A stretch of DNA of 35,120 bases from a virus (IMGVR_UViG_2534681658_000013); one strand, 5' to 3'; shown: positions 4,356 to 15,927, counted from the stretch's first letter. Numbers and translations: made by a program. The notes: generated by a model from the letters alone, not told the origin.

Positions 4356-4787
4356 ATGGCAAAAGTATTTACACAAGAAGAGCGGGAAAAAATTAAAGGG
4401 CAGGTTGTTGAGCTAGTACGCCGGAGTGGGCGCGAGACGTTACGGCAACTGGAAGCCAAGACAGGTGCGACAAGATATCTGATGAGCGTTCTCGCCAGAG
4501 AGCTGGTTGCCAGTGGCGATGTATACAACTCTGGTTACGGGTTATTCCCGTCTGAACAGGCTCGTAAGGACTGGCAAAATGCCCGCAAAAAACTATCCAG
4601 GGCAAAGGTGAAGAAACCATCTGTGGTTGATCCGGACCTTATCTGGTCATTACCAGACGGAGAAATACGCCGCTACGACAGGCGTCTGAACATAATCTGT
4701 CGCGAGTGCCGGAAGAGCGAAGTTATGCAGCGTGTGCTGGCGTTTTATCAGAATGGTTTTCGAGAGAGGCTTGGAGATCAGGGATGA
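4356..4787 (+). CDS. Hypothetical phage protein
   Basis: ATG at 4356 with GGAGG RBS 7 nt upstream; 143 aa; last gene before the AT-rich island. Confidence 0.5.
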   Translation: MAKVFTQEEREKIKGQVVELVRRSGRETLRQLEAKTGATRYLMSVLARELVASGDVYNSGYGLFPSEQARKDWQNARKKLSRAKVKKPSVVDPDLIWSLPDGEIRRYDRRLNIICRECRKSEVMQRVLAFYQNGFRERLGDQG

Positions 4788-4980: not shown

Positions 4981-6135
4981 ATGGATTATTTATCAGAAGT
5001 GTTAAAAATCATTGAAGGTGCAACAAAGGCAAATGCTTCGATGGCTAGTAATTATGCTGGGTTGCTGGCAGATAAGCTCGAACAAAAAGGGGAGGTCAAG
5101 CAAGCCAGAATGATAAGAGAAAGGTTGCTTAGAGCTCCCCAGGCGTTGGCAGGAGCTCAAAGGGCTGGAGGTGGGATATCTCTGGGCTCATTACCGGTAG
5201 ATATTGATAGTCGACTCAACACTGTTGATGTCAGTTATCCTAAATTAGACAGTTCAGAGATTTTTCTGCCTGCAGCAATCAGTACCCGTGTTGAAGAGTT
5301 TATCACTAATGTTCAACGTTATGATGAGTTTGTTAAAGCTGATGCAGCATTGCCGAGTCGTATGCTCGTGTATGGAAAGCCAGGAACAGGTAAGACTATG
5401 TTATCTAAGTACATCGCTACCCGCTTAGATTTTCCACTTCTTACAGTGCGTTGCGATACTTTGATTAGTAGTTTATTGGGACAAACCAGCAAAAATCTTA
5501 GACAGGTTTTCGATTATGTAATGCAGAGGCCATCAGTGCTTTTTTTAGACGAATTTGATGCTTTAGCTGGAGCAAGAGGTAATGAGAGAGATATAGGTGA
5601 GCTTCAGCGAGTTGTCATTTCACTATTGCAGAATATGGATGCGGCATCAGAGGATACGGTAATTATTGCCTCAACTAACCATGAGCAACTTCTGGATCCT
5701 GCAATCTGGAGGCGATTTAGCTTCAGAATTCCAATGCCTCTGCCTGACATACATCAGAGAGAGTTAATTTGGAAAAATCGTTTAAAGAATATGATATGTA
5801 GCGATCTAGATTTAAGTGATTTATCAAGAAAATCGGAGGGATTATCCGGAGCAATAATTGAACAGGTGAGCTTGGATGCACGTAGGGATGCAGTTATTGA
5901 AGGTGCAAGTGTGATAAATCACCATAAATTGTATAGGCGTTTGTATCTTGCGCAATCGCTTATGGAAGGTGTAAATTTAAGCACTTACGAAGATGAAATT
6001 CGTTGGTTACGTTCTAAAGATAAAAAATTATTTTCTATCAGAGTTCTTGCTAATTTGTACAAACTTACATCAAGAGTAATTTCAAACATTCTGAAGGAGT
6101 CAGGAGCATATGAGCAGAAGGGGTACACAGTTTAG
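4981..6135 (+). CDS. AAA+ ATPase (classic AAA family), first gene of a candidate two-gene defence cassette (IetA-like?)
   Basis: Walker A GKPGTGKT (5374..5397), Walker B LFLDEFD (DE at 5548..5553), second region of homology STNHEQLLDPAIWRRF; GGGAGTG RBS before the ATG at 4981; AT-rich codon usage distinct from flanking phage genes. Confidence 0.85.
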   Translation: MDYLSEVLKIIEGATKANASMASNYAGLLADKLEQKGEVKQARMIRERLLRAPQALAGAQRAGGGISLGSLPVDIDSRLNTVDVSYPKLDSSEIFLPAAISTRVEEFITNVQRYDEFVKADAALPSRMLVYGKPGTGKTMLSKYIATRLDFPLLTVRCDTLISSLLGQTSKNLRQVFDYVMQRPSVLFLDEFDALAGARGNERDIGELQRVVISLLQNMDAASEDTVIIASTNHEQLLDPAIWRRFSFRIPMPLPDIHQRELIWKNRLKNMICSDLDLSDLSRKSEGLSGAIIEQVSLDARRDAVIEGASVINHHKLYRRLYLAQSLMEGVNLSTYEDEIRWLRSKDKKLFSIRVLANLYKLTSRVISNILKESGAYEQKGYTV

Positions 6136-8374
6136 TAACGCAAAAGTTACAAACCCAATGTTAAGAATCCCTTTTTCCAGTAGTGACTTGGGTGCAATAG
6201 TAAACGCTGGCGGTGGGGCAAAGGTATTGGTTGATGTAACAGCCGAATATAGACAAGGGCTAGTAAGAAATTTAACAACCAGTAAACATTATTTAGAATC
6301 CAAACTTTCAGAGTACCCTGGAAGCTTGGGTACTTTGGTTTTCAAATTAAGAGACCAGGGAATAGCCAAAACGCATAGGCCGAACAAAATTGCTCAAGAG
6401 GCTGGATTGCAAAATGCCGGTCATGCCAAAATAGATGAAATGTTGGTTGCTGCTCATGCCGGCTGTTTTGACGTATTAGAGTCAGTCATTTTACATCGGA
6501 ATATTAAAGCGATTTTGGCTAATCTAAGCGCGATTGAGCGCATTGAACCTTGGGATGAGAATAGGAAGGTTCCAGGAGGCACTGATGGTTTGTTTGAATC
6601 ATCAAACATCCTTGTACGACTATTTGAGTACACAGGTGAAGATGCAACTTACAACAACTATGAAAACGTTATTTCTATATTAGAACAACACGGAGTTAAA
6701 TATGATGAGATTAGACCAAAATGTGGTCTTCCCTTATTAAGGATAATGGATTTATCCCCAAATGATAGATATATATTAGACATTCTCATTGATTACCCGG
6801 GTATAAGAACGTTAATTCCAGAACCAAAATATTCAGCATTCCCGGTTAGTGTAAGTGATTCTGTTGGCATTGAAACAAATAGCTTTCCCGTACCATCAGA
6901 AGAATTACCCATTGTTGCTGTATTTGACACTGGGGTAAGCCCCATCGCGGCAACAATTACTCCTTGGGTAGTGAGTAGGGAAACATACGTAATTCCTCCT
7001 GATACGAGTTATGAACATGGGACTATGGTGTCTTCATTGATATCAGGCGCTCATTTTTTAAATGACAATCATCCATGGATTCCTGATACAAAATCTAAAA
7101 TCCATGATGTTTGTGCTTTAGATGGAAATGGATCTTATATATCAGATTTAATTCTGAGGCTAGCAGATGCTGTAAATAAAAGACCAGATATAAAAGTCTG
7201 GAATTTGTCTTTGGGAGGCGGACCATGTAATGAGCAGATGTTTAGTGATTTTGCGATGGAGTTAGATCGGCTCAGCGATAAATTTGGTATTTTGTTTGTA
7301 GTTGCTGCAGGTAATTATGTAGATGAACCTATACGTACATGGCCAAATCCTGATCCGCTTGGAGGTGCTGATTTAATTTCCTCTCCTGGAGAGTCAGTCC
7401 GAGCACTAACAGTTGGTTCAGTTTCTCATATGGAAGCTAATGATGCTTTAAGTGAAATTGGAACACCGACACCATATACTCGTCGTGGCCCTGGGCCTGT
7501 ATTTACTCCAAAGCCAGATATAATCCATGCTGGCGGTGGGGTTCATAGACCTTGGAATGTAGGAGCAAGCAGTTTAAAGGTCGTAGGGCCAGATAATAGG
7601 CTTTGCTCTAATTTTGGTACTAGTTTTGCTGCTCCAATTGTGGCAAGTTTAGCTGCGCATACATGGCAGAGAATAGCCACTAATTCAGACTTTAATGTTT
7701 CACCATCATTGATTAAAGCATTATTAATTCATTCCGCTCAATTATCTTCTCCTGATTACTCGCCAAGTGAAAGACGCTATTTGGGAGCGGGAATTCCTAA
7801 TGAGGTTATTGAGACCTTATATGATAGTGATGATAGGTTTACTCTGATTTTCCAAACATTCTTGGTTCCTGGGGTGAGGTGGAGAAAGGAAAACTATCCC
7901 ATACCATCGGCACTTATTCAAAATGGAAAATTTAAAGGTGAGATTGTAATTACTGCTGCATATGCACCACCACTGAACTCTAATGCCGGCAGTGAATATG
8001 TTCGCGCGAACGTAGAGCTAAGTTTTGGCTTAATTGAGAATAATACTATAAAAGGAAAAGTACCTATGGAAGGAGAAAACGGTCAATCTGGATATGAGAG
8101 AGCTCAAATTGAGCATGGTGGAAAGTGGTCACCAGTAAAAATTCATCGCAAGGCATTTAATAAAGGAATTACTTCGGGTAACTGGGCTCTTCAAGCTAAA
8201 ACAACGTTGAGAGCGAATGAACCGGCCTTAATGGAGCCTTTACCTGTAACTATTGTAGTAACTTTAAAATCATTAGATGGAAACACACAAGTTTATGCTG
8301 ATGGCGTAAGAGCTTTAAATGCTAATAACTGGGCTCACTATCCATTGCCTGCTCGTGTGCCAGTTTCCGTATAA
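6110..8374 (+). CDS. Subtilisin-like serine peptidase (MEROPS S8) with large N- and C-terminal domains of unknown function; second gene of the cassette (IetS-like?)
   Basis: Catalytic triad in subtilase order: Asp in VAVFDTGVS (codon 6926..6928), His in HGTMVS (7016..7018), Ser in GTSFAAP (7622..7624). No N-terminal signal peptide. AGGAG RBS; the start overlaps the ATPase gene by 26 nt. Confidence 0.85.
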   Translation: MSRRGTQFSNAKVTNPMLRIPFSSSDLGAIVNAGGGAKVLVDVTAEYRQGLVRNLTTSKHYLESKLSEYPGSLGTLVFKLRDQGIAKTHRPNKIAQEAGLQNAGHAKIDEMLVAAHAGCFDVLESVILHRNIKAILANLSAIERIEPWDENRKVPGGTDGLFESSNILVRLFEYTGEDATYNNYENVISILEQHGVKYDEIRPKCGLPLLRIMDLSPNDRYILDILIDYPGIRTLIPEPKYSAFPVSVSDSVGIETNSFPVPSEELPIVAVFDTGVSPIAATITPWVVSRETYVIPPDTSYEHGTMVSSLISGAHFLNDNHPWIPDTKSKIHDVCALDGNGSYISDLILRLADAVNKRPDIKVWNLSLGGGPCNEQMFSDFAMELDRLSDKFGILFVVAAGNYVDEPIRTWPNPDPLGGADLISSPGESVRALTVGSVSHMEANDALSEIGTPTPYTRRGPGPVFTPKPDIIHAGGGVHRPWNVGASSLKVVGPDNRLCSNFGTSFAAPIVASLAAHTWQRIATNSDFNVSPSLIKALLIHSAQLSSPDYSPSERRYLGAGIPNEVIETLYDSDDRFTLIFQTFLVPGVRWRKENYPIPSALIQNGKFKGEIVITAAYAPPLNSNAGSEYVRANVELSFGLIENNTIKGKVPMEGENGQSGYERAQIEHGGKWSPVKIHRKAFNKGITSGNWALQAKTTLRANEPALMEPLPVTIVVTLKSLDGNTQVYADGVRALNANNWAHYPLPARVPVSV

Positions 8375-10121: not shown

Positions 10122-10502
10122 ATGACCGAACGCATAGAATTTGTTTTGCCTTACCCGCCAACGGTGAACACCTACTGGCGACGTCGTGGCAGCACATATT
10201 TTGTATCAAAAGCCGGTGAGCGTTATCGCCGTGATGTGGCGCTTATTGTTCGCCAGCAGCGGCTGAAATTAAGCCTGTCCGGAAGGCTGGCGATAAAGGT
10301 GATTGCAGAGCCACCGGATAAGCGTCGTCGCGACCTGGACAATATCCTGAAAGCACCGCTGGATGCGCTGACGCATGCGGGAGTGTTAATGGACGATGAG
10401 CAGTTTGATGAAATCAATATCGTTCGTGGTCAGCCAGTATCTGGTGGACGTATGGGGGTGAAGATTTACCCCATAATGCATGAAGAGCAGGTCAAAAAAT
10501 GA
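10122..10502 (+). CDS. rusA: Holliday junction resolvase RusA
   Basis: 126 aa, N-terminus IEFVLPYPPTVNTYWRRRG and acidic catalytic region typical of RusA; conserved position just upstream of Q in lambdoid phages. Confidence 0.85.
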   Translation: MTERIEFVLPYPPTVNTYWRRRGSTYFVSKAGERYRRDVALIVRQQRLKLSLSGRLAIKVIAEPPDKRRRDLDNILKAPLDALTHAGVLMDDEQFDEINIVRGQPVSGGRMGVKIYPIMHEEQVKK

Positions 10503-11320
10503 AACTGGAAGATTTACCGAAATACTACTCCCCAAAATCCCCTGGCCTGACCGATGCATCGGCCTCAACGTCAAAAGATGCGCTGAGTATCACTGATGTG
10601 ATGGCCGCGCAGGGCATGACACAGAATCGGGCTGAGATGGGTTTTTCTGCGTTCCTGGGGAAAATGGGCATCAGTATGAATGACAGGGCGCGGGCAACAG
10701 AATTACTGGCAGATTATGCACTCAGTCGGTGCGATCGTGTGGCGGCGTTGAGAAAACTTCCGGCAGAAATAAAACCGGTAGTGATGCGCATTATGGCTTC
10801 GTACGCTTTTGAGGATTATGCCCGCAGCGCAGCGAGTAAAAAGCAGTGCCCTTGTTGCTATGGGGAAAAATTTATTGAAAGCGTAGTTTTTACAAACAAG
10901 GTCCAGTATCCGGATGGTAAGCCGCCGGTATGGGCAAAGTGTACGAAAGGTGTGTATTCGTCTTACTGGGAAGAATGGAAAAAAGTCAGGGAGGGGGTAA
11001 AAGTTGCCTGTCCGGAGTGTGGCGGAAAGGGTGAGGTTTCCACCGCCTGTAAGGATTGCCGTGGGCGTGGTGTCGCCATTCATCGTGAAGAGTCGGTAAA
11101 ACGTGGTATGCCTGTTATCAGAGACTGCCAGCGTTGTGGTGGTCGTGGCTATGAAAGACTACCATCAACGGAGGCATTTAATGCTATATGCGAGGTGACA
11201 AACCAGATAACACGCGCGTCATGGGAAAAAACAGTTAAGAAATTCTATGATGCGCTGGTGACCCGGTTTGATGTTGAAGAAGCATGGGCTGAGCGGCAGT
11301 TAAAAAAGGTAACTAGGTAA
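10499..11320 (+). CDS. Putative late-gene antiterminator (Q-like) with CxxCxGxG zinc-finger repeats
   Basis: Synteny (after rusA, immediately before a pR'-like promoter, terminator and late genes); Cys-rich repeats CPECGGKG, CKDCRGRG, CQRCGGRG. Family assignment is by position and zinc motifs, not by recognised sequence identity. Confidence 0.55.
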   Translation: MKLEDLPKYYSPKSPGLTDASASTSKDALSITDVMAAQGMTQNRAEMGFSAFLGKMGISMNDRARATELLADYALSRCDRVAALRKLPAEIKPVVMRIMASYAFEDYARSAASKKQCPCCYGEKFIESVVFTNKVQYPDGKPPVWAKCTKGVYSSYWEEWKKVREGVKVACPECGGKGEVSTACKDCRGRGVAIHREESVKRGMPVIRDCQRCGGRGYERLPSTEAFNAICEVTNQITRASWEKTVKKFYDALVTRFDVEEAWAERQLKKVTR

Positions 11321-11400: not shown

Positions 11401-11426
11401 AACCCGCCGCCGAGCGGGTTTTTTAT
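11401..11426 (+). terminator. Rho-independent terminator (tR'-like) downstream of the late promoter
   Basis: Hairpin aacccgc-cgccga-gcgggtt followed by TTTTATT; lies about 50 nt downstream of the candidate -10, so it would give a short 6S-like leader RNA unless antiterminated. Confidence 0.5.
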
Positions 11427-11463
11427 TGCGGAATTAATTACGGACCGTTATTATTCTGCTCCC

Positions 11464-11539
11464 GGCCCTTTAGCTCAGTGGTGAGAGCGAGCGACTCATA
11501 ATCGCCAGGTCGCTGGTTCAAATCCAGCAAGGGCCACCA
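11464..11539 (+). tRNA. tRNA-Ile2 (anticodon CAU, lysidine type; ileX/ileZ-like)
   Basis: Hand-folded cloverleaf: acceptor GGCCCTT/AAGGGCC, D-stem GCTC/GAGC, anticodon loop CTCATAA, T-arm GCTGG-TTCAAAT-CCAGC, encoded CCA. Very close to my recollection of E. coli ileX, so more likely Ile2 than elongator Met. Confidence 0.8.
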
Positions 11540-11639
11540 TCACAAACCGCCATTAGCTTATCAGGAAGAGCAGACGACACGATAACAGGGTTGTTGGTGC
11601 GGGGGCGGGTCCCCGATGGCGGTCCATTATCGGTATTCA

Positions 11640-11713
11640 GCGTTGTTAGCTCAGCCGGACAGAGCAATTGCCTTCTAAGCAATCGGTCACTGGTTCGAAT
11701 CCAGTACAGCGCG
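11640..11713 (+). tRNA. tRNA-Arg (anticodon UCU, reads AGA)
   Basis: Hand-folded cloverleaf: acceptor GCGTTGT/ACAGCGC (one G-U pair), anticodon stem ATTGC/GCAAT with loop CTTCTAA, T-arm ACTGG-TTCGAAT-CCAGT; CCA not encoded. Resembles argN/argO-type tRNAs of lambdoid prophages. Confidence 0.75.
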
Positions 11714-11826
11714 CTATATTCATTCTTCCAGATTCCTTCCGGCAGAGCCTTATACTGAAATATACCTGGCTCAGGATATTGTTGAAAATATTTTATGTTT
11801 GTCAAAAATAAAAGTTCTGTTAAGTA

Positions 11827-12180
11827 TTGATTGAGTGTTTGTTATACGGTCTAATGGTTTTTTCAGCATTAAATATTTATCATTCATATGGTGTGGGTAG
11901 AGTGAATATTGATGAGGCGTCGGGGTGTTTCATCCTTAGGCAGCGTATTGATATAGTCAATGCAGGACGAGCAAAGGCCTTCAGCCGTTTGACAGTTTTG
12001 TTCTGTACTCCTGATCGTCTTTCGGGAAGAGACGTTATTATTCTGAATAGTGATGCTATACAGAGGGTTTGCGATGAGTTCATGGTTGCTAATTCAGAAT
12101 TATTTGCTCTTGTTCAGGAGTACAACAGAATAGCCAGGACCTGTGGTATGGATGAACTTCGGATTACTCATCTGGGGTAG
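11827..12180 (+). CDS. Hypothetical accessory (moron-position) protein
   Basis: ORF track; AT-rich; located between the tRNAs and the lysis cassette, where lambdoid phages carry cargo such as stx. No motif recognised. Confidence 0.35.
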   Translation: MIECLLYGLMVFSALNIYHSYGVGRVNIDEASGCFILRQRIDIVNAGRAKAFSRLTVLFCTPDRLSGRDVIILNSDAIQRVCDEFMVANSELFALVQEYNRIARTCGMDELRITHLG

Positions 12181-12571
12181 ATACATATCTGGATTATCAC
12201 TTGTTACGGTAAAAAGTGATTGCTTACTGTTTTTGTGAGTGGCATTGCAGCAGCCGGATAATGTCAGTGCTGGCTGACGGTGTGCTGGTGGCGGGTGTGG
12301 TGGTTGTTGCTTTCCCGTTGCTGAAAAAGAAAACGCCAGACTGTTAGCCGGGTATCAGTTAGCGGGAGAAATTTTTAAATACTTCACAATTCAGGCGGTT
12401 GACTGTTGTCTGGTTTGCGGGGAGTTTGTTAAAAGAAACTGGCATGGTGAATCCCCCTGTGCGGAGGGGCAATCAGCGAGTAGGTATATGGGATAATCGC
12501 GGATTCAGGTGCTGGTACTGAATTCACCGGGAGGCACCCGGCACCATGCAATGGCACATAGCGCCACTCTC

Positions 12572-12600
12572 CAGCCCCTCTCCGGAGGGGCTGTTTATAT
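12572..12600 (+). terminator. Strong intrinsic terminator hairpin
   Basis: 9-bp perfect stem cagcccctc-tccg-gaggggctg followed by TTTATATTGATTTT. Confidence 0.5.
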
Positions 12601-12627
12601 TGATTTTGTCAGATGTGAGTAAACTCC

Positions 12628-12963
12628 TTATGGACTTTGTTGTTTTAGTCCATAAGGACATATTTGCAGAGTGCAACGGTTATTAAAGCATTCATTCAAT
12701 ACGTTATCTGTATTTGTAGGACATTCCTGGCTGTTTTTGATTAAATTCCAGAATGTTTTATTGAATGGTACTACGTTGTAAATGGTTACAGGTAGCACTT
12801 TGTTATTGAGCATGATACCTGTGTGAGTCAGTGTAAATATACTTTCAGGAGGTAAGAAAGCATCCGATTGATACCAGATTATTAATTTTATTTTACTCCA
12901 TATGACTGAAAAAGATATTCCGCATGATGGCTGGATAACTGTATCAATCACAATCCACTTCAT
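12628..12963 (-). CDS. Hypothetical accessory protein, antisense to the late operon
   Basis: ORF track; very AT-rich; opposite orientation to surrounding late genes. Confidence 0.35.
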
Positions 12964-13223
12964 TTAGCTTCCTTGTTTATGCCTTGCTGGTGATGTTCTG
13001 AAAAGTATAAATGATATTTTTGAATATAAACCATAGAGCAGAATTATTTTTCTGATGTTGTTTATTGTTTATTTAAATGCAGGGTGGTTTATATCTCGTC
13101 TTGTAGTTTATCCATGCATATCTGCTTGATGATCAGGTTTCTATTTAAGGTATGGTTTTGTGTTTTTTCTGTGTTACATGTCTGGTATTTTAAAGAATTA
13201 TTTTTCAGATGGTGGAAAGAACC

Positions 13224-13412
13224 ATGGCATTTAAACACTATGATGTTGTCAGGGCGGCGCCGCCGTCAGATCTTGCGGAAAAGCTGACACATAAACTGAA
13301 AGAGGGCTGGCAGCCGTTTGGTAGTCCGGTGGCCATAACCCCTTATACCCTGATGCAGGCGATTGCAGCAGAAGGTGATGTGGTGGTCAGTGGTGCAACT
13401 GAGCCCGAGTGA
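13224..13412 (+). CDS. Small conserved lambdoid-prophage protein upstream of holin (possibly DUF1737-like)
   Basis: ATG at 13224 with GGAAAG RBS (the ORF track starts 5 codons earlier at 13209); 62 aa. Family name is from memory and uncertain. Confidence 0.45.
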   Translation: MAFKHYDVVRAAPPSDLAEKLTHKLKEGWQPFGSPVAITPYTLMQAIAAEGDVVVSGATEPE

Positions 13413-13719
13413 TACTACGTCATCGTACTGGCCCGGCATTCCAGGCCATAAAAGACAGTCTGGCAGTGGGACTAAATGTACTGACGCTGACGGATATTAC
13501 CAAAAATGCAACGTATGGCGTTGAGATAGAAAGTCTGGTGCTGGAGATAAATGCACCGGCATCATCATAAAAAGTGAGCCAGTCAAATGGAAGGTATCGT
13601 TAAACTCACCGGTAGTGTCAGTGGATCGTCTGAGACGCTTGCATGAGTTATCAGAGCCATCAGTAGTTAACTGGTGGCTTTTTTATTGTTGTCAGCTTCC
13701 GGATAACGGGAGACGGGGT

Positions 13720-13935
13720 ATGGACCAGATGGAAAAAATCACAACAGGTGTGTCATACACCACGTCAGCGGTGGGAACGGGCTACTGGTTCCTGCAGTTG
13801 CTGGACAGGGTTTCCCCGTCTCAGTGGGCGGCAATAGGCGTGCTGGGGAGTCTGCTGTTTGGGCTGCTGACATATCTGACTAACCTGTATTTCAAAATCA
13901 GAGAGGACCGTCGTAAGGCGGCACGGGGAGAGTAA
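13720..13935 (+). CDS. Class II holin / pinholin (phage 21 S-like) with dual-start motif
   Basis: 71 aa [26 protein letters not shown]...[15 protein letters not shown] closely resembles the S21 pinholin; Met1/Met4 dual start (antiholin/holin); GGAGACGGGG RBS. The ORF track extends it upstream to 13615 in frame. Confidence 0.8.
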
Positions 13936-14627: not shown

Positions 14628-15161
14628 ATGAACGCAAAAATCAGATACGGCCTGTCGGCTGCCGTTCTGGCGCTGATTGCCGCTGGTGCGCCTGCGCCTG
14701 ACATTCTCGACCAGTTTCTGGATGAAAAGGAAGGTAACCACACCACGGCATACCGTGATGGCGCGGGTATCTGGACCATCTGCCGCGGTGCCATCCTGGT
14801 GGATGGCAAACCTGTCGTTCCGGGCATGAAGTTGTCGAAGGAAAAATGCGACCGGGTTAACGCCATTGAGCGTGATAAGGCGCTGGCATGGGTGGAGAAA
14901 AACATCAAAGTGCCATTGAGCGAACCCCAGAAAGCGGGGATCGCGTCATTCTGTCCGTACAACATTGGTCCCGGTAAGTGTTTCCCGTCGACGTTTTATA
15001 AACGAATTAATGCAGGTGATCGCAGGGGAGCGTGTGAGGCGATTCGCTGGTGGATTAAGGACGGTGGCAGAGACTGCCGTATTCGTTCAAACAACTGCTA
15101 CGGTCAGGTATCCCGTCGTGACCAGGAGAGCGCGCTGGCGTGCTGGGGTATCGACAGATAA
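14628..15161 (+). CDS. SAR endolysin (T4-type lysozyme, R21-like)
   Basis: N-terminal Gly/Ala-rich signal-anchor-release segment (GLSAAVLALIAAGAPA) followed by a lysozyme-like domain (EGNHTTAYRDGAGIWTICRG); pairs naturally with the pinholin. Confidence 0.85.
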   Translation: MNAKIRYGLSAAVLALIAAGAPAPDILDQFLDEKEGNHTTAYRDGAGIWTICRGAILVDGKPVVPGMKLSKEKCDRVNAIERDKALAWVEKNIKVPLSEPQKAGIASFCPYNIGPGKCFPSTFYKRINAGDRRGACEAIRWWIKDGGRDCRIRSNNCYGQVSRRDQESALACWGIDR

Positions 15162-15459: not shown

Positions 15460-15927
15460 ATGAACCGCGTACTGTGCGTGGTCATCATTGCCCTGCTGGT
15501 GGCCTGTGGTGCGCTTAGTCTGGGGCTGAATCATTACCGTGATAACGCCATAACCTACAAAGAGCAGCGCGATAAAAAAGTCAGTGAGCTGGAGCAGGCA
15601 AATGCAACCATTACTGATATGCAGCAGCGCCAGCGTGATGTTGCTGCACTTGATGCCAGATACTCGAGGGAATTAGCCGATGCGAGAGCTGAAAATGAAA
15701 CTCTGCGCGCTGACGTTGCCGCTGGTCGTAAGCGCCTGCGGATCAACGCCACCTGCCCCGGTACCGTGCGTGAAGCCCCCACCACCTCCGGCGTGGATAA
15801 TGCAACCGGCCCCCGACTGGCAGACACCGCTGAACGGGATTATTTCACTCTCAGAGAGCGGTTGATGCTGATGCAGAAGCAGCTGGAAGTGGCGCAGGAA
15901 TATATCCGCACTCAGTGCCTGAAATAA
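15460..15927 (+). CDS. Rz: i-spanin Rz
   Basis: N-terminal transmembrane anchor, coiled-coil-rich periplasmic domain, Rz1 embedded in the +1 frame; follows the endolysin. Confidence 0.8.
   Translation: MNRVLCVVIIALLVACGALSLGLNHYRDNAITYKEQRDKKVSELEQANATITDMQQRQRDVAALDARYSRELADARAENETLRADVAAGRKRLRINATCPGTVREAPTTSGVDNATGPRLADTAERDYFTLRERLMLMQKQLEVAQEYIRTQCLK
15695..15865 (+). CDS. Rz1: o-spanin Rz1 (outer-membrane lipoprotein) embedded within Rz
   Basis: MKLCALTLPLVVSAC lipobox signal followed by a proline-rich mature region; entirely inside Rz in another frame. Confidence 0.7.
   Translation: MKLCALTLPLVVSACGSTPPAPVPCVKPPPPPAWIMQPAPDWQTPLNGIISLSESG

Follow-up and report, generated by a model that had tools for sequence, protein, structure and literature searches.

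The window analyzed here, a 35,120 nt stretch of virus DNA (IMGVR_UViG_2534681658_000013) given as one strand with positions counted from its first letter, carries between its phage tRNA genes and its lysis cassette a 92-codon gene (orf92), a gene for a small DUF3927 protein, the sRNA STnc100, the anti-adaptor gene iraL on the minus strand, and the remnant of a nanS-p gene (Table 1). A preliminary description of this DNA had reported two oppositely oriented ORFs at this place, 11827-12180 (plus strand, 117 aa, TTG start) and 12628-12963 (minus strand, 111 aa, ATG start). Both ORFs were found at these coordinates, and their location between the tRNAs and the lysis cassette was confirmed, with the tRNA genes at 11464-11714 upstream and the holin, lysozyme and Rz-like genes from 13720 downstream. 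The DUF3927 gene, STnc100 and the nanS-p remnant lie in the same interval and had been missed. We are highly confident in the overall explanation that the interval belongs to a lambdoid E. coli prophage and is the accessory region of its late operon, made up of five elements rather than two. The locus is a correct yet ordinary example of such a region, real and largely known.

Table 1. Genes and other features of the accessory region and its flanks, in window coordinates.
Feature	Position	Strand	Basis
Q-type antiterminator gene	10499-11320	+	Pfam Antiterm 5.6e-54
Intrinsic terminator just 3′ of the Q gene	11401-11427	+	Terminator scan
Phage tRNA, CAT anticodon	11464-11539	+	ARAGORN tRNA-Met (CAT); Rfam tRNA 72.5 bits
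Phage tRNA-Arg (TCT)	11640-11714	+	ARAGORN, PGAP annotation, Rfam
5′ extension of the 117-aa ORF	11827-11901	+	dN/dS 0.6, frameshift haplotype, low pLDDT
orf92, 92 aa, GTG start	11902-12180	+	phrog_2873, homolog starts, dN/dS, AF2
DUF3927/TciB-like small hydrophobic protein, 43 aa	12216-12347	+	Pfam PF13064, phrog_1470, WP_000562553.1 (PGAP)
sRNA STnc100	12413-12602	+	Rfam RF02076
iraL cassette, 631 bp, 32% GC	12593-13223		blastn breakpoints vs L053, L056, L006, L026
iraL CDS, RssB anti-adaptor, IraM family, 111 aa	12628-12963	-	CFT073 identity, NCBIfam NF007393
iraL 5′ UTR, start, -10 (TATACT) and -35 region	12964-12996, 12996, 13004-13009, 13025-13032	-	5′-RACE sequence mapped
nanS-p remnant (sialate O-acetylesterase): DUF1737 N-terminus and C-terminal fragment	13224-13570	+	Pfam, phrog_143
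Class II holin (downstream lysis cassette)	13720-13935		RefSeq annotation of identical genomes
Lysozyme (lysis cassette)	14628-15161		RefSeq annotation of identical genomes
Rz-like gene (lysis cassette)	15460-15927		RefSeq annotation of identical genomes

Comparison with lambda and 933W suggests that the hairpin following the Q gene is the late operon's tR′. For the first phage tRNA, ARAGORN reported tRNA-Met (CAT), and PGAP annotated the identical gene as tRNA-Ile. The ileZ-type tRNAs of Stx phages have a CAT anticodon that is modified and reads AUA. The names of the lysis genes were taken from RefSeq genomes 100% identical to the window over 11750-13300. The GC content was 52% for the whole window, 32% for the iraL cassette, 44% for orf92, 52% for the DUF3927 gene and 55% for STnc100, and the low-GC stretch (31-34% GC vs 52%) was confined to about 12600-13200. 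The AT-richness noted before is real yet uneven. Among 1000 dinucleotide shuffles, an ORF of 111 aa was reached 7 times and one of 117 aa never. The ORF lengths by themselves are moderately unusual, and homology is the deciding evidence. Homology searches of both proteins, the check that had been proposed, led to IraL for the minus-strand product and to PHROG 2873 for the plus-strand product, so that the view of both ORFs as unrecognizable had to be given up.

The backbone of the region resembles that of the Stx2-converting phages, in which Q, tRNAs, cargo, STnc100, nanS-p and holin follow one another, with DNA similarity at STnc100 and at the start of nanS-p. In contrast to these phages, the window carries orf92 and the DUF3927 gene instead of stx, has an extra iraL cassette after STnc100, and its nanS-p is internally deleted. 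The absence of Shiga toxin genes had been noted before and was confirmed: there was no ORF longer than 117 aa in 11715-13600 and no toxin-domain match among the eight ORFs scanned with Pfam, and neither the A-subunit gene (about 319 aa, RIP domain) nor the B-subunit gene was found between the tRNAs and nanS-p. Taken strictly, the slot equivalent to that of stx runs from the tRNAs to STnc100 and is occupied by orf92 and the DUF3927 gene, whereas iraL lies in the next slot, between STnc100 and nanS-p. The assignment of the locus to the stx-equivalent position therefore stood for the former pair and not for iraL, which is one slot beyond.

The small elements around the two ORFs were identified from family models. 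The DUF3927 gene matched PF13064 at 1.7e-27 (95.6 bits vs a gathering score of 25) and phrog_1470, "TciB-like", at 7.8e-13, and its product has a GRAVY of 0.95. Its annotated GTG start was changed to GTT (window 12218) in 6 of 26 haplotypes, and codon 8 was a stop in one haplotype, which could mean either a misannotated start or a dispensable gene. STnc100 was matched by RF02076 over its full length (model positions 1-206, 132.4 bits vs a gathering score of 47, E=4e-31), and the terminator scan placed its 3′ intrinsic terminator at a stem at 12572-12593 followed by a T tract. STnc100 has been described before as a prophage sRNA and a relative of PasD (bioRxiv 10.64898/2026.05.13.724894). In Stx2 phages, its position is 75 nt downstream of stx2B (PMC12370729). 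The family is transcribed in EHEC lysogens, as seen in EDL933 cultures, where a Northern blot confirmed one copy (PMC5331693). Four STnc100 copies (4575-4787, 6547-6742, 6806-7005 and 7067-7256) were seen in the Stx-type prophage of STEC1585 (L006), three of them head to tail between an orf92 homolog and nanS-p. In the IMG/VR loci L037 and L084, STnc100 was about 2.1-3.1 kb further from the DUF3927 gene than in the window, indicating an insertion in that spacer.

PGAP annotated a partial "hypothetical protein" pseudogene at window 12433-12558 on the minus strand of identical genomes. Because it is antisense to STnc100 and lies inside it, this is probably a spurious protein call. The nanS-p remnant showed a DUF1737 match at 4e-17, and its two small ORFs corresponded to positions 1-58 and 582-632 of the 634 positions of phrog_143; the first was flagged by PGAP as a partial pseudogene. 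An intact NanS-p esterase is a single protein of about 630 aa with DUF1737 at its N-terminus and a SASA esterase domain, and here only the first ~58 and the last ~50 residues were found, in two ORFs. The gene is an internally deleted esterase gene whose body is gone. No defence model of PADLOC-DB was matched by orf92, DUF3927, IraL or the nanS-p fragments.

The coding extent of the plus-strand ORF was examined through its relatives, which were collected from 1.8 billion representative proteins by profile search. These were 91-106 aa in length, and most aligned from residue 26-39 of the 117-aa reading; the aligned span opens at the GTG at 11902, where homologs of 91-99 aa also have their start. 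A second profile search added homologs from Citrobacter, Salmonella, Morganella, Serratia and Xenorhabdus. Among the phage protein families PHROG 2873 and 4827, orf92 matched phrog_2873 (E=5.1e-58, profile positions 17-108 of 108), as did all nine aligned relatives; the family has no assigned function, Pfam model or solved structure. Over the 92 codons, three pairwise comparisons at 62-76% nucleotide identity gave dN/dS values of 0.25-0.27, and changes at third positions outnumbered those at first or at second positions about two to one. For the 25-codon extension, on the other hand, dN/dS was 0.6, and the differences per codon position were 11/10/12. A 1-nt deletion lay inside the extension in haplotype L043, the L008 homolog had in-frame stops upstream and an AGGAG ahead of its GTG, and AF2 modeling of the 117-aa form gave pLDDT below 50 at residues 1-23. 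The 117-aa reading was rejected in favor of 92 aa on the basis of the homolog starts, the dN/dS of the extension, the deletion, the upstream stops and the low pLDDT. The 117-aa ORF is thus a real conserved gene that had been over-extended at its 5′ end, with conservation and coding potential holding for the 92 codons and not for the extension; 11827-11901 is most likely a non-coding, untranslated leader.

The 92-aa form was modeled by AF2 with a mean pLDDT of 84.5 as a two-helix hairpin (helices 3-34 and 50-81), and the hairpin protein is predicted to be soluble. The check for a signal peptide or transmembrane segment in the plus-strand product, also proposed earlier, revealed neither in the hairpin model. 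Foldseek searches against PDB and BFVD returned only generic helical hairpins (prefoldin and designed hairpins) at E of at least 0.15, and these were dismissed as uninformative. No match at E of 10 or below was obtained for orf92 in a PDB sequence search, and a tblastn search of GenBank phages gave a single near-identical record.

Prophages of Salmonella (L093), Serratia (L096, L097) and Citrobacter (L009) carry their orf92 family member after the Q gene and phage tRNAs and just ahead of the holin. In Morganella (L094, L095), the homolog also follows Q and precedes the holin, with no tRNA detected there. The place ahead of the holin was kept across five genera at 22-43% identity. Such constancy of position speaks for a late gene of the phage and against swappable cargo, and suggests that orf92 serves an accessory role in late or lytic development, not in host conversion. 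The plus-strand ORF, previously taken for cargo, is therefore better read as a late gene, since other genera's prophages keep it at the same place, Q - tRNAs - gene - holin. It may be an unrecognized late-development gene of Enterobacterales lambdoid phages (PHROG 2873), with a part in late transcription, lysis timing or phage-tRNA use.

Other members of the family were seen in different surroundings. In a Stx-type E. coli prophage, a copy 56% identical to orf92 lies after an AraC-family gene, between the tRNAs and nanS-p; in STEC prophages, this regulator gene (HTH_18; phrog_1450; L004 164-889 and L006 5164-5889) ends 21 nt before the homolog, suggesting a two-gene unit that is missing from the window. 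In a Citrobacter braakii prophage (L009, 6477-7051), a TerB-domain gene and a DUF3927 gene come after the orf92 homolog, just upstream of the lysis-gene region, so the link between orf92 and DUF3927 recurs at 43% identity. A further branch (34% identity; L090-L092, gene 5001-5276) was found on Rep3-type plasmid contigs of E. coli, by a K88-like chaperone-usher fimbrial operon. This plasmid-borne branch stands outside the phage context and weakens a strictly lytic role.

These surroundings also bear on a different reading, in which orf92, together with the DUF3927 gene, would be host-directed cargo in the stx slot, such as a toxin, an exclusion factor or a fitness factor. Its place between the tRNAs and STnc100 is exactly that of stx2AB, DUF3927 is labeled in PHROG as a moron, TciB-like, and both the AraC-family gene ahead of the STEC homolog and the fimbrial genes beside the plasmid branch fit such a role. 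However, a pre-holin position that is maintained at such low identities is unusual for swappable cargo, and the soluble hairpin model, free of signal peptide and transmembrane segment, and the lack of a defence-system match in orf92 also argue against it. We regard cargo as a possible though rather unlikely reading, and a phage late gene as the preferred one.

The reading of the plus-strand ORF as decayed or arisen by chance, with no protein product, as its absence from RefSeq implies (PGAP leaves 11715-12215 unannotated in identical RefSeq genomes), is hardly credible: the TTG and GTG starts, the weak Shine-Dalgarno of the window's GTG, the lack of a Pfam family match, and in-frame deletions or frameshifts in some alleles would agree with it, but dN/dS rises to 0.8-1.2 in shifted frames, the homologs from several genera, though only 22-63% identical, agree in length and position, and the PHROG match and the confident AF2 model stand against it as well. 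Within the population, 6 synonymous and 5 non-synonymous changes were counted in orf92. Orf92 is a conserved gene of a catalogued family without assigned function, not a spurious one.

The minus-strand protein was identical over 111 of 111 residues to IraL of CFT073 (WP_000871291.1), which is encoded in the potB prophage. It scored 162 bits against the NCBIfam model NF007393, "anti-adapter protein IraM" (cutoff 121), over residues 1-110 of 111. The gene of CFT073 was named iraL by Hryckowian et al. [quoted passage not shown] In that work, deletion of iraL in CFT073 lowered the level of RpoS in log phase and cut its half-life from about 5 min to about 2.5 min, and K-12 given iraL with its native promoter showed raised RpoS (PMC4045071). 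[quoted passage not shown] Later work counted IraL as a known paralog of IraM (PMC10844676), and IraL was raised in a fur mutant of CFT073 (PMC7157518). The minus-strand gene is iraL, a characterized and already known prophage gene that protects RpoS from degradation. The copy in the window would be expressed and active as in CFT073, judging from its sequence.

The iraL prophage of CFT073 also shares the order Q - tRNAs - DUF3927 - [iraL] - DUF1737 - holin, the transcription start and the -10 element with the window. [quoted passage not shown] This sequence maps to the minus strand of the window from 12996, with the TATACT upstream of it (Table 1). The gene therefore has the features by which the IraL subtype is recognized, namely at least 95% identity to CFT073 iraL (100% for the protein and about 98% for the cassette), a sigma-70 promoter and the mapped start. 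In the alignment, the promoter region was about 98% identical to that of CFT073, and the promoter and 5′ UTR differed at a few single positions: the probable -35 was altered once (TTTACA to TTTATA), position -1 once, and two substitutions lay beside the Shine-Dalgarno. The substitutions in the promoter and the Shine-Dalgarno flank could change the output. CFT073 differs further in an IS200 and a third tRNA upstream. Two small ORFs inside the iraL promoter region, 13084-13287 (plus strand) and 13089-13238 (minus strand), were unannotated in the identical RefSeq genome and were taken as chance ORFs rather than genes; Pfam and NCBIfam searches with the first gave no match.

The same substitutions could be taken to mean that iraL in the window is silent or weakened, so that the cassette would be a passenger without effect on RpoS in the strain. 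The degraded state of the adjoining nanS-p would agree with this, as a sign that the prophage region is decaying. However, the CDS is intact and the protein identical, the -10 and the transcription start are unchanged, and the same allele occurs in many ETEC genomes. We therefore consider a silent copy improbable and favor an expressed one.

K-12 IraM (b1160), a member of the same NF007393 family, has a crystal structure in complex with RssB, 8TWD (PMC10844676). A match to the IraM chain (8twd_A) was obtained at E=9e-32 over IraL residues 1-78, of which 51 of 78 were identical, so the N-terminus of IraL is predicted to carry the PmrD-like beta-barrel domain seen in 8TWD. All five cysteines (Cys14, 81, 92, 97 and 102) are conserved at the same positions, whereas the proteins as a whole are only 62% identical. 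Mg2+ starvation is the signal for IraM, which contacts both RssB domains; IraL works in log phase and binds the N-terminal domain alone (PMC4045071). Nucleotide similarity to the K-12 iraM locus was restricted to the CDS and ended at its edges, indicating that the promoters of the two genes are unrelated, which agrees with the published regulatory difference. A PhoP box upstream of iraL was considered but looked unlikely: by eye, there was only a single GGTTTA half-site overlapping the -35, and there was no homology to the K-12 iraM promoter. K-12 iraM was placed on e14 in the earlier work (PMC4045071); the annotated e14 prophage, however, ends at 1211412, a short way before iraM at 1211680-1212003. 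That the minus-strand gene functions as K-12 iraM does, under PhoP/PhoQ control and with induction by Mg2+ starvation, rather than being of the log-phase IraL type, is very improbable: the common NCBIfam family, the overall likeness with its conserved cysteines and the RefSeq name "IraM" favor it, but the full identity is to IraL, the promoter is unrelated, and IraL differs in expression conditions and RssB-binding pattern (PMC4045071).

The iraL gene is part of a discrete cassette. Homology with iraL-less prophages broke off at the STnc100 terminator stem (about 12592) and returned at the DUF1737/nanS-p ATG (13224), and these breaks define the cassette as 12593-13223. Where the cassette stands in the window, the iraL-less relatives L053, L051 and L056 have a 233-bp spacer between STnc100 and nanS-p. 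In L026, also without iraL, two genes with TolA C-terminal domains (6813-7241 and 7392-7787) occupy the slot after STnc100, indicating that this slot exchanges cargo. The cassette was present or absent among otherwise near-identical prophages. Of 80 IMG/VR prophage loci with the shared upstream module, 59 carried it. Among complete E. coli genomes, it was present in 1428 of 5426 (~26%), almost always at 95% identity or more. The best matches of the window are ETEC, and its allele was 100% identical in many ETEC genomes.

Taken with the published work, the locus would operate as follows. IraL would bind the adaptor RssB, upon which RpoS would no longer be handed to ClpXP and would accumulate during growth. 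The gene would be transcribed from its own sigma-70 promoter on the AT-rich cassette, against the late operon, and because of this promoter and orientation its expression in the lysogen would be independent of the Q antiterminator. The earlier suggestion of an independently expressed lysogenic-conversion gene is thereby borne out for minus-strand iraL, with its sigma-70-type promoter opposing the late operon, although the gene had already been published. Orf92 and the DUF3927 gene lie downstream of Q, the likely pR′/tR′ and two tRNAs, where Stx2 phages carry stx2AB, and they would most likely be co-transcribed with the lysis genes after Q-dependent antitermination, like stx2 in those phages. 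Late transcription and iraL transcription would then converge.

The terminator scan did not find an intrinsic terminator after iraL on the minus strand, so its transcript may run antisense across STnc100. Such an overlap is a speculation; it would link the RpoS-stabilizing iraL with a prophage sRNA, and the two of them with the convergent late transcription that depends on Q. Joined with orf92 as an unrecognized conserved late-development gene, this composite picture is tentative, and we think it unlikely to hold as a whole.

These results call for three corrections of the annotation: the RefSeq label "IraM" should give way to the true subtype, IraL; the conserved 92-aa gene is missing from RefSeq; and the PGAP "pseudogene" is antisense to STnc100. 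The prophage is an RpoS-modulating converting phage, not a carrier of unknown cargo. Since iraL raises RpoS in growing cells, its carriage means changed stress resistance, and possibly niche adaptation, in about one quarter of complete E. coli genomes.
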